Origin: Desulfobacterales bacterium HSG2
GTDB lineage: Bacteria > Desulfobacterota > Desulfobacteria > Desulfobacterales > 4be13
Length of the DNA stretch: 22,931 nucleotides
Direction of reading: 5' to 3'
Assembly: GCA_030378035.1 (NCBI GenBank)
Contig: JAUCGI010000075.1
Span: 1 to 22,931, forward strand
Positions 13,173-15,008 of the stretch are shown one piece after another (within the stretch, counting starts at the first letter, position 1; every line of letters begins with the position of its first letter). The notes under the pieces were generated by a model, which made no database searches, had not been told where the DNA came from, and saw only the letters and a program-made list of their open reading frames with translations. The translations under genes were made by a program, and so were the position numbers.

Positions 13173-13912
13173 GGGGGATTGCCAATCCGAACCGAACGGC
13201 CCCGGGCAGGCTCGCGGGGGATTGCCAAATCCCCCGCCCTTCACAGTGCTTCGGATTTGACAATCCGAACCGAGCGACCCCGGGCAGGCACGCGGGGGAT
13301 TGCCAAATCCCCCGCCCTTCACAGTGCTTCGGATTTGCCAATCCGAACCGGGCGACCCCGGTCAGGCTCGCGGGGGATTGCCAAATCCCCCGCCCTTCAC
13401 AGTGCTTCGGATTTGACAATCCGAACCGGGCGGCCCCGGGCAGGCTCGCGGGGGATTGCTAAATCCCCTTCACAGTGCTTCGGATTTGCCAATCCGAACC
13501 GAACGGCCCCGGGCAGGCTCGCGGGGGATTGCCAAATCCCCCGCCCTTCACAGTGCTTCGGATTTGCCAATCCGAACCGAGCGGCCCCGGGCAGGCTCGC
13601 GGGGGATTGCCAAATCCCCCGCCCTTCACAGTGCGATCCCGGGCAAGCTCGCGGGGGATTGCCAAATCCCCCGCCCTTCACAGTGCTTCGGATTTGACAA
13701 TCCGAACCGGGCGGCCCCGGGCAGGCTCGCGGGGGATTGCCAAATCCCCCGCCCTTCACAGTGCTTCGGATTTGCCAATCCGAACCGAGCGGCCCCGGGC
13801 AGGCTCGCGGGGGATTGGTAAATCCCCGCCCTTCACAGTGCTTCGGATTTGCCAATCCGAACCGAGCGGCCCCGGACAGGCTCGCGGGGGATTGCCAAAT
13901 CCCCCGCCCTGT
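13173..13912. repeat. Tandem array (about 9.5 copies) of a 78-bp unit with two related hairpins per unit (GGGGGATT-GCCA-AATCCCCC and TCGGATT-TGCC-AATCCGA). Not a CRISPR: no spacers
   Basis: Unit GGGGGATTGCCAAATCCCCCGCCCTTCACAGTGCTTCGGATTTGCCAATCCGAACCGAGCGGCCCCGGGCAGGCTCGC read directly. Copies differ by scattered SNPs, a 13-bp deletion in one copy and one truncated copy. The array's right edge replaces the 3' end of the HEPN gene. Confidence 0.9.
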
Positions 13913-14177
13913 TCGCCGTTTCCTCAGACATGCGGGCGAGAATATCCCTGTGCCAGTGAGAACCTGACGGAACATCGCCGTCAGTTCTCTTGGCAATGAT
14001 GTGGAATATCTTCTCCAAACCTGTATAGAACGAATGTATCACAGAAGCCAAGGCGGTAAGTTCCACCAAATCAGGCGGGTTCTGTTCCACACGCTCCAAA
14101 AGCCCGGCATAAGACTCAAAAAGATGATCAATCTGTCCAATTTCAAAATTTATCTGTGTTATCGATGTGTTATCCAA
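13833..14177 (-). pseudogene. hepT: HEPN-type toxin partner of MntA (resembles the HI0074 nucleotidyltransferase substrate-binding family). The C-terminus appears truncated by, and fused to, 78-bp repeat sequence
   Basis: The first 85 aa (QINFEIGQIDHLFESYAGLLERV...FYTGLEKIFHIIAKR...HWHRDILARMSEE) fit the helical HEPN/HI0074-like fold. The last 28 codons (GDLAIPREPVRGRSVRIGKSEAL) are the reverse complement of the repeat unit. The expected C-terminal R-x4-H-x-Y motif is absent. The gene overlaps mntA by 8 nt. Confidence 0.5.
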
Positions 14178-14421
14178 TTTGAAGCAGTTCTCCTTCCTTT
14201 TTCAAATAATTTGAAAACGCGTCATCCCTGTCAAGACTAACCAGATCCACAGGGTAATCTAAGTTCCGAAAAAGCCTGCCCCAGATATGAAAAAATTTCC
14301 CTCTGGGACATCCCTGGACTGCGATGTCAATGTCCGAACCCTCTCTGACATTGTTTTCGGCAAGGGAACCGAAAAGAAAGATATCGGAACATCCTTCGGA
14401 TATGAGTATTTCCACAGCCAT
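14170..14421 (-). CDS. mntA: Minimal nucleotidyltransferase (MNT) antitoxin of an MntA/HepT-type toxin-antitoxin pair
   Basis: Classic NTase motif LFGSLAENNVREGSDIDIAV (GS...[DE].D[IV]D). 83 aa. Overlaps the HEPN gene in an operon arrangement. Confidence 0.75.
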   Translation of the reverse strand: MAVEILISEGCSDIFLFGSLAENNVREGSDIDIAVQGCPRGKFFHIWGRLFRNLDYPVDLVSLDRDDAFSNYLKKEGELLQIG

Positions 14422-14466
14422 TCGGATGTTTTTCTTATAGGATTCGGGAAGTCGGATTTTTTTTTA

Positions 14467-14585
14467 TTCATTATCATTTTAATCTTATCCTTTCCAGAAA
14501 ACTCACTCATCATTTTAATCTTATCCTTTCCAGAAAACTCACTCATCATTTTAATCTTATCCTTTCCAGAAAACTCACTCATCAT
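14467..14585. repeat. Three tandem 36-bp direct repeats (CATTTTAATCTTATCCTTTCCAGAAAACTCACTCAT) immediately upstream of mntA. Operator or promoter candidate
   Basis: Read directly. Lies 46-160 nt 5' of the mntA start on the minus strand. The overlapping 108-aa ORF (MMSEFSGKDKIK x3) is a translation artefact of the repeat. Confidence 0.7.
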
Positions 14586-14648
14586 TTTATTATCATAACA
14601 TTTGATCCGGGTGCTGTCAAGAAGTCAATAGCAACCCGACCAAGCGGA

Positions 14649-15008
14649 ATTGACAAATCCCCTGCATACCGGCCCAAGCAGGCTCGCGGGGGATTGCCAA
14701 ATCCCCCGCCCTTCACATGCTTCGGATTTGCCAATCCGAACCGAGCGGCCCCAGGCAAGCTCGCGGGGGATTGCCAAATCCCCCGCCCTTCACAGTGCTT
14801 CGGATTTGCCAATCCGAACCGAGCGTCCCCGGGCAGGCTCGCGGGGGATTGCCAAATCCCCCGCCCTTCACAGTGCTTCGGATTTGCCAATCCGAACCGA
14901 GCGACCCGGGCAGGCTCGCGGGGGATTGCCAAATCCCCCGCCCTTCACAGTGCTTGGGATTTGCCAATCCGAACCGGGCGATCCCGGGCAAGCTCGCGGG
15001 GATTGCTG
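14649..15008. repeat. Second tandem array (about 4.5 copies) of the same 78-bp dual-hairpin unit, between mntA and the 3' end of recB
   Basis: Same unit as 13173-13912, read directly. A further partial copy lies at 22889-22912 at the window edge. Confidence 0.9.

Follow-up and report, generated by a model that had tools for sequence, protein, structure and literature searches.

REPs (repetitive extragenic palindromes) are, according to one account (PMC8266576), palindromes of 20-50 nt that follow a conserved tetranucleotide, are very numerous and mostly intergenic, and often lie in bacterial interspersed mosaic elements (BIMEs), wherein two inverse REPs and a variable linker frequently recur as consecutive tandem copies. 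REP dimers may be arranged head-head, tail-tail, or head-tail, and large clusters consist of tandemly repeated dimers (PMC3733652). The described superfamilies are tagged either GTAG, which is associated with the REP-associated tyrosine transposase (RAYT), or CGTC (PMC3733652); the CGTC-tagged REPs have been reported without a dedicated transposase (Di Nocera et al. 2013, PMC3733652). In this study, a repeat of similar layout was analyzed in a 22,931-nt stretch of DNA (hereafter the window), which is an entire contig of Desulfobacterales bacterium HSG2. The contig probably comes from a short-read assembly, and the array copy numbers and the length of one homopolymer run (A9) given below rest on that assembly. 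Two arrays of a hairpin-bearing 78-nt unit lie in the window, one on either side of a toxin-antitoxin gene pair. They are probably REP/BIME-like clusters of hairpin elements, in which REP and inverted REP follow each other in tandem, beside a decayed toxin-antitoxin pair.

Each 78-nt unit contains two hairpins, hairpin 1 (GGGGGATTGCCAAATCCCCC) and hairpin 2 (TTCGGATTTGCCAATCCGAA). Hairpin 1 occurs 15 times in the window at up to three mismatches (0.01 expected), and hairpin 2 occurs 12 times per strand (0 expected). Hairpin 1 can be written as GCTCG-C-GGG-GGATTGCCAAATCC-CCC, and hairpin 2, read on the opposite strand, as GCTCG-G-TTC-GGATTGGCAAATCC-GAA. Because the tag and the 14-nt core are identical once hairpin 2 is strand-flipped, the two hairpins are evidently a single element in opposite orientations. 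The 78-nt unit would therefore consist of the element, a short linker, the inverted element, and a variable linker. A preliminary description of the window had reported two similar hairpins per unit; both are real, although they represent one element facing both ways, as REP and inverted REP do in a BIME. The element comprises a 5' GCTC(G/C) tag, which reads (C/G)GAGC on the other strand, and a 10-bp stem of five variable outer pairs and an invariant GGATT/AATCC, closed by a GNCA loop. It measures 24 nt with the 10-bp stem and 4-nt loop, or 29 nt with the tag, and its sequence can be defined as GCTC(G/C)-N4-GGATTGNCAAATCC-N4'. Nearly invariant are the inner GGATT/AATCC, the loop G, and the loop CA; the second base of the loop varies freely. 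The core also has a conserved one-nucleotide asymmetry (GGATTG-N-CAAATCC). Among 411 unique copies, 84-92% have the tag bases G-C-T-C at positions -9 to -6, and the tag persists in 126 copies unselected for the tag, with the consensus nnTGCTCG.

The hairpin form of the element is maintained by compensatory changes. These were counted in 126 copies that had never been used as search seeds, with 500 shuffles as the control. In this set, 89% of the stem cells were paired, compared with 73% in the shuffles; 229 double-sided changes were found, compared with 118 +/- 7, a number reached by none of the 500 shuffles. Every slid register scored worse, and each of the five outer pairs was represented by at least three Watson-Crick types. 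A separate covariation count on the 411 unique copies was concordant with this result. G-U pairs were scarce in the variable stem, at about 5% of the cells that are paired; such scarcity would be expected of copies that have to fold on either strand, or of copies that are simply recent. The compensatory substitutions in the outer stem thus fit a hairpin formed by a single strand, not a sequence-specific duplex operator.

Tandem Repeats Finder detected three blocks: 13179-13634, with 5.9 copies, and 13638-13910, with 3.5 copies, both have a period of 78 nt, and 14678-15006, with 4.3 copies, has one of 77 nt; matching within all three was 92-94%. Together with the Pfam matches of the enclosed genes, these periods agree with the preliminary description, in which two 78-bp arrays flanked a minus-strand MNT-HEPN pair. 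When dissected unit by unit, the arrays prove to be built of 78-nt units, some of which vary in length (73, 52, or 77 nt). Array 1 begins 44 nt past the trpD stop codon with a hybrid at 13173 that joins the left arm of hairpin 1 to the right arm of hairpin 2; it includes the 73- and 52-nt deletion variants and ends at 13910, directly after a hairpin 1. Array 2 has the same orientation as array 1 and contains about five copies of hairpin 1; its end falls 2 nt short of the recB stop codon. On average, units are 95.9% identical inside array 1, 94.8% inside array 2, and 95.0% between the arrays; since the between-array identity equals the within-array identity, the two arrays represent one sequence population. 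The cluster holds 28 cores in 1.8 kb in total. As single strands, the hairpins of array 1 fold with z-scores of -3.3 to -4.2.

The element is dispersed and extragenic, occurs mostly as inverted doublets, and is locally amplified to arrays in several genomes. A search with the exact 20-mer of hairpin 1, using one genome per species, found it in 36 contigs, 32 of which come from three related Desulfobacterales/Desulfococcaceae genomes; the other four are three contigs of one Anaerolineales metagenome-assembled genome (MAG) and one from Fibrobacteria. Many of these matches lie at contig ends. With the outer stem left free, the genome loci and the window yielded 229 cores; 214 of these come from outside the window. 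When metagenomes were scanned with GCTCG-N4-GGATTGNCAAATCC, at least 120 stretches matched, and the metagenome contigs among the matches listed have 41-71% G+C. The listed metagenome loci and one viral-contig hit (L045-L166) hold 237 cores, 144 of which have all four outer pairs, compared with about 2% by chance. In total, at least 466 cores are present in 158 loci (genome matches, metagenome matches listed, and the window). Of the 466 cores, only 20% fall within stop-free stretches of 200 codons or more, and such stretches make up 77% of the bases of the 158 loci. The plasmid and phage collections contained no match to the element, and viral contigs gave the single hit mentioned above. The usual form is the inverted doublet with tags outward, and single copies and same-orientation runs are also common; copies occur in both orientations relative to adjoining genes. 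Desulfococcaceae bacterium HSG8 carries tandem arrays of the same two hairpins with array-specific linkers; the one at L022 has 29 cores in 1.08 kb, and further arrays lie at L021, L005, and L166. Orientations alternate in the window, L005, L021, and L022, and linkers vary from array to array. For the source genome HSG2, the evidence covers two contigs, namely the window and a 30-kb contig on which a 232-aa predicted protein (QUF72_11285) is the translation of a second array. The dispersed family suggested earlier was thereby recovered, as was the partial third copy noted close to the contig end (Table 1). Near-identical assemblies (L001/L149, L008/L035/L137, and L042/L043) differ at repeats, a comparison confounded by N gaps and paralogues.

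The definition given above provides a concrete sequence description of an abundant repeat that breaks Desulfococcaceae assemblies and is currently annotated as "hypothetical proteins". Several such GenBank entries of 149-341 aa are translated REP-like arrays: QUF72_11285 (P0135) and, in HSG8, QUF80_20830 and QUF80_23960 (P0136 and P0138; L166 131-1156). The counterpart in the window is 13833-13910, the tail of QUF72_13185. The peptides ARGGLPNPPP, FGFANPNRA, and RICQSEP recur in these array translations. In the Anaerolineales MAG and in one contig from a metagenome, nothing separates the two inverted cores (CGCGGGGGATTGCCAAATCCGGCGGGGGATTTGGCAATCCCCCGCG), which produces one long perfect palindrome instead of two hairpins (L013 248-293, L014 3723-3766, L030 5969-6018, and L102 319-361).

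The closest described systems are the y, z1, and z2 REPs and BIME-2 arrays of Escherichia coli and the REPINs (REP doublets) of Pseudomonas fluorescens, which share with the element a short imperfect palindrome with a 5'-foot tag, high copy number, an extragenic location, inverse pairs with variable linkers, and pairs in tandem (PMC8266576, PMC3733652, PMC3116915). The element itself has the REP structure: a stem-loop within 20-50 nt, a 5' tag, dispersal in high copy number, and inverted pairs in tandem. Bulges make IS608 and REP hairpins strand-specific, and the one-nucleotide asymmetry of the core recalls these bulges. The window cluster is at the long end for BIMEs. The CGTC-tagged REPs likewise have a tag other than GTAG and the same types of dimer and tandem cluster; however, their tag and stem sequences differ from those of the element, and the text of that survey contains no "GCTC" (PMC3733652). 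The literature searched gave no match to the core sequence or to the strain names. From its sequence and layout, the Desulfococcaceae element is best classed as a REP/BIME-type repeat family that is new but of a familiar kind, rather than as a new system. The REP/BIME-type organization is thus extended to filamentous sulfate reducers.

The gene pair between the arrays resembles the type VII MntA/HepT systems. The antitoxin precedes the toxin with an 8-nt overlap, the MNT motif G-S-x10-D-x-D is present, and the N-terminal half of the toxin is HepT-like_2; an intact pair of both families is found at L037. The differences are that the window toxin has no R-x4-H-x-Y C-terminal half and that the start of the antitoxin is out of frame. 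The toxin open reading frame (ORF) consists of 89 native residues (13911-14177) and a 25-residue tail from the repeat (13833-13910), which is read as the reverse complement of the unit; the junction is at 13910/13911, between residues 89 and 90. The preliminary description had identified this tail correctly and placed the end of the native part at residue 85. Homologues of the toxin are 145-161 aa in length and do not end at this position: past the break they continue (...YLGFRHFYRHSYSFFLEW...), with FRHFYRHSY, which contains R-x4-H-x-Y, about 20 residues beyond the break point. The alignment with these homologues shows that the catalytic motif is absent from the window toxin, confirming the truncation proposed earlier. 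The edge of a repeat array thus coincides with the loss of the catalytic half of a toxin.

The antitoxin ORF (14170-14421) carries G-S-x10-D-x-D (GSLAENNVREGSDID), scores 36 bits against the NCBIfam MntA_antitoxin model (cut-off 60), and is 55% identical to the intact 99-aa partner of the HepT-like_2 gene at L037. This homology reaches 12 residues upstream of the ATG at 14421, and the frame stays open for 14 codons before that ATG, as far as a TAA at 14464-14466. The A9 run places the upstream ATGs in a frame other than that of the MNT body; with A10 or A7 the two would agree. Read in the shifted frame, the perfect 36-nt repeat of this region yields MMSEFSGKDKIK three times over. An N-terminally shortened antitoxin starting at ATG 14421 is possible. 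Since toxin and antitoxin are both damaged, the pair is judged to be a decaying remnant, not a working module. The earlier suggestion was of an antitoxin left with a defanged toxin; the antitoxin is itself not intact, as it is frameshifted. The array edges facing the cassette differ in repeat phase, and the left edge falls within the toxin gene; the simple insertion of a cassette into one array is unlikely on both grounds. The simplest reading of the toxin break would be a deletion or an array rearrangement with a possible microhomology of 3-4 nt (AGG/CCCT); an expansion of the array into the toxin gene, as proposed earlier, is also conceivable. In a small sample of about 15 doublet-bracketed cassettes, three are toxin-antitoxin-like (the window, L033, and L136) and the others are ordinary genes. 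At L033 522-1057, element doublets bracket a DUF4258 toxin and an MqsA-like zinc-ribbon antitoxin; at L136 907-1712, they bracket a HEPN-domain protein and a 136-aa partner.

Table 1. Coordinates of the repeat arrays, the enclosed gene pair, and the adjoining genes in the window.
Feature	Position	Strand	Remarks
trpD (anthranilate phosphoribosyltransferase)	12062-13129	+	Pfam Glycos_transf_3, Glycos_trans_3N
Array 1	13173-13910	+	10 forward elements (hairpin 1) alternating with 8 full inverted elements (hairpin 2) and one hybrid
Truncated HepT-like_2 toxin ORF (QUF72_13185, 114 aa)	13833-14177	-	Pfam PF20797, profile positions 1-50 of 110
MNT (MntA-like) antitoxin frame	14170-14463	-	annotated ATG 14421; Pfam Polbeta (E = 3e-9), NTP_transf_2
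A9 run (T9 on the + strand)	14457-14465	-	direct reading
Perfect 36-nt tandem repeat, 3.2 copies	14473-14589	-	spans the start-codon region of the antitoxin
Putative sigma-70-like promoter of the cassette	14592-14620	-	TTGACA, 17 nt, TG-TATGAT; 11/12, consensus match only
Array 2	14644-15006	+	degenerate hairpin 1, four full 77-78-nt units, partial hairpin
recB (exodeoxyribonuclease V beta subunit)	15009-18872	-	TIGR00609, 981 bits (cut-off 696); UvrD-helicase domains
Solitary degenerate copy of the element	22884-22916	+	GCTAG-CGG-GGATTGCCAAATTCC-CTCGG; match 22892-22911 with 3 mismatches; 20 nt from the contig end

If the arrays are REP/BIME-like clusters, copies of the element may have spread as non-autonomous single-strand hairpin elements, possibly by means of a RAYT-type Y1/HUH transposase, and the arrays may lengthen or shorten through unequal recombination or slippage between copies. 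Once transcribed, the stems that end up 3' of trpD and recB could hinder 3' exonucleases or have an attenuator function; an RNA-level effect on these two 3' ends is plausible. A rearrangement at the edge of array 1 would have removed the 3' half of the toxin, including R-x4-H-x-Y. The antitoxin, with nothing left to neutralize, may then have acquired the frameshift and the 36-nt triplication at its 5' end.

Several points weigh against this explanation. The tag of the element, GCTC(G/C), is neither GTAG nor CGTC. The 14-nt core is invariant across 41-71% G+C and at least two phyla (on the evidence of three Anaerolineales contigs), whereas REPs are usually lineage-specific. Neither the window nor about 0.97 Mb of element-bearing loci contained a RAYT/IS200-type Y1 transposase or a REPtron, as judged by a motif regular expression and by tblastn with E. 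coli RayT (from L040) and with RAYT/IS200 consensus sequences; the best tblastn match, including the consensus queries, had E = 0.29. Because RAYTs are typically single-copy and the search covered loci, not whole genomes, this negative result is weak, and about 0.5 matches would be expected at one RAYT per genome. The remaining point concerns the toxin junction. When the trpD locus was compared with those of HSG8, of two GMC2-type assemblies, and of Desulfonema ishimotonii, only the pairing of trpD with the alcohol dehydrogenase (ADH) gene proved to be conserved; downstream of trpD, every relative compared has a different gene, and other repeat families occupy the spacers. With no synteny beyond trpD, the relatives give no order of events at the junction.

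Clustering of the 790 ORFs within 400 bp of copies showed that no transposase family recurs beside them. The recurrent flanking families are histidine kinases, large surface proteins, and one family with ATPase_2 and helix-turn-helix (HTH) domains. This last family, of about 590 aa, has weak Pfam matches to ATPase_2 and HTH_20 and is present in at least eight diverged copies with 65-83% nucleotide identity; a D...EVK motif at its C-terminus is reminiscent of a PD-(D/E)XK nuclease. REP-like doublets lie on both sides of each copy, no more than about 100 bp away, and tandem copies occur at two loci. The copies lie at L004 486-2312, L009 102-1889, L026 828-2570, L035 3975-5723 and 5859-7610, and L137 2604-4349 and 4530-6278, as well as at L006 and L096. 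As a cassette, the gene could travel or be duplicated together with the repeats, and it is one candidate for a recurrent partner of the element. Since no RAYT was seen in 0.97 Mb, a spreading protein other than a canonical RAYT may be considered. It is conceivable, although unlikely, that the element belongs to a third, undescribed superfamily of REP type, tagged GCTC, with a core invariant across phyla (41-71% G+C) and spread by such a mobilizing or binding protein. Should the conservation of the core across phyla be borne out, with still no RAYT, the repeat could lead to a different REP-handling protein. The one potentially surprising aspect of the element is this combination of cross-phylum core invariance, a non-canonical tag, and no RAYT so far; its biology is otherwise familiar.

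Two further explanations are both improbable. In the first, the arrays are sets of structured non-coding RNA genes whose hairpins are selected at the RNA level only. The strong predicted folds (z = -3.7 when folded as RNA) and the covariation are consistent with this explanation, and REP-type elements are known to act in RNA (PMC8266576). However, no Rfam family matched at its gathering score, and matches at E up to 1 were at chance level only. The copies in both orientations relative to adjoining genes, the inverted doublets, and the scarcity of G-U pairs in the variable stem also argue against RNA genes, and a search for sigma-70-like promoters found no promoter-like site for the arrays. In the second explanation, which is no more probable, the inverted doublet (GCTCG...CGAGC) is a miniature inverted-repeat transposable element (MITE) moved by a classical DDE transposase, not by a RAYT. 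The inverted tags at both ends of the doublet and the failure to find a RAYT would suit such a transposon. However, single copies and same-orientation runs are common, the conserved part is a short hairpin with a compensatory stem instead of a long terminal repeat, and the 790 flanking ORFs include no recurring transposase family.

It is very improbable that the arrays, or their copy number, and the frameshift of the antitoxin are artefacts of short-read assembly across repeats. Many copies do lie at contig ends in related assemblies, the window contig itself ends 20 nt past a copy, and homopolymer length is error-prone. However, point variants and the 52- and 73-nt deletion forms anchor the assembly, comparable arrays are present in independent HSG8 assemblies, and the junction between toxin and repeat is unique sequence. 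An iteron- or parS-like cluster, one of the readings raised in the preliminary description, would mean that the paired hairpins bind a dimeric replication or partition protein and that the arrays function as a centromere or an origin. Regular spacing, a nearly palindromic core, and many tandem copies would be in keeping with this, but it is almost certainly incorrect: the context is one of chromosomal housekeeping genes (trpD and recB), no rep or par genes were found among the scanned ORFs, hundreds of copies occupy unrelated intergenic sites in several genomes, plasmid and phage collections are without a match, and the outer stem covaries with at least three Watson-Crick types per position, which a sequence-reading dimer would not tolerate. 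A CRISPR array, which had already been discounted, is rejected, as all inter-hairpin segments are repeated at 92-97% identity within the arrays and no Cas domains occur in the scanned ORFs.

The genes around the REP/BIME-like clusters mark the contig as chromosomal, as it encodes TrpD, RecB, and a zinc ADH. Both arrays and the MNT/HepT pair sit between the convergent trpD and recB genes. The start of trpD is likely to be M48 of a 402-aa ORF, as homologues align from MSSETQL (120 listed, mostly 353-366 aa); the 5' extension of this ORF (11921-12061), which consists of heptamer repeats, probably remains untranslated. The closest TrpD proteins among the matches listed are from Desulfococcaceae bacterium HSG8, uncultured Desulfobacterales MAGs, and Desulfonema ishimotonii, with 82-92% identity. 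Downstream of trpD, the GMC2 locus has other hairpin repeat families (L042 8280-8560 and 8690-8960), namely GGACGGGGTTGCAAACCCCGTCC, GGTGGGTGCAACCCACC, and a unit of about 60 nt, and the HSG8 spacer has units rich in CACGAAG/CTTCGTG (L041 8280-8480). Two near-identical assemblies differ by 150 bp downstream of trpD, over an N gap.

Short tandem repeats of 6, 7, 9, 15, and 21 nt crowd the contig, some of them intragenic (11927-12041, 3426-3607, 3655-3774, 7921-7958, 16094-16166, 17599-17715, and 19186-19236). In this respect the contig resembles filamentous cyanobacteria and large sulfur bacteria, with their heptamer repeats. The heptamer ATCAAGC, present 16.7 times, produces the false 5' extension of trpD. 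In recB, the 15-nt and 21-nt repeats are in frame and encode NGSRA four times and GGQLSVV-like runs. The hexamers ACTTAA (30 copies) and AGTGCA (20 copies) lie opposed upstream of the ORF at 3778. A separate repeat family with a 139-nt unit (about 4.5 copies, 22234-22879) has an internal hairpin in each unit (GGAAGCCGGTT...AACCGGCTTCC); it is located downstream of the M50/HlyD gene and reaches the solitary REP-like copy. A Pfam scan of the ORFs identified this M50/HlyD-type protein and several eukaryote-like proteins as other products of the contig. Three of the latter are encoded within these 23 kb at 1331-2860, 5706-6743 (minus strand), and 7981-10476; the set comprises MACPF with hemopexin repeats, caspase with SH3, and, in a protein of 831 aa, the shoulder and repeat domains of Major Vault Protein together with SPFH.

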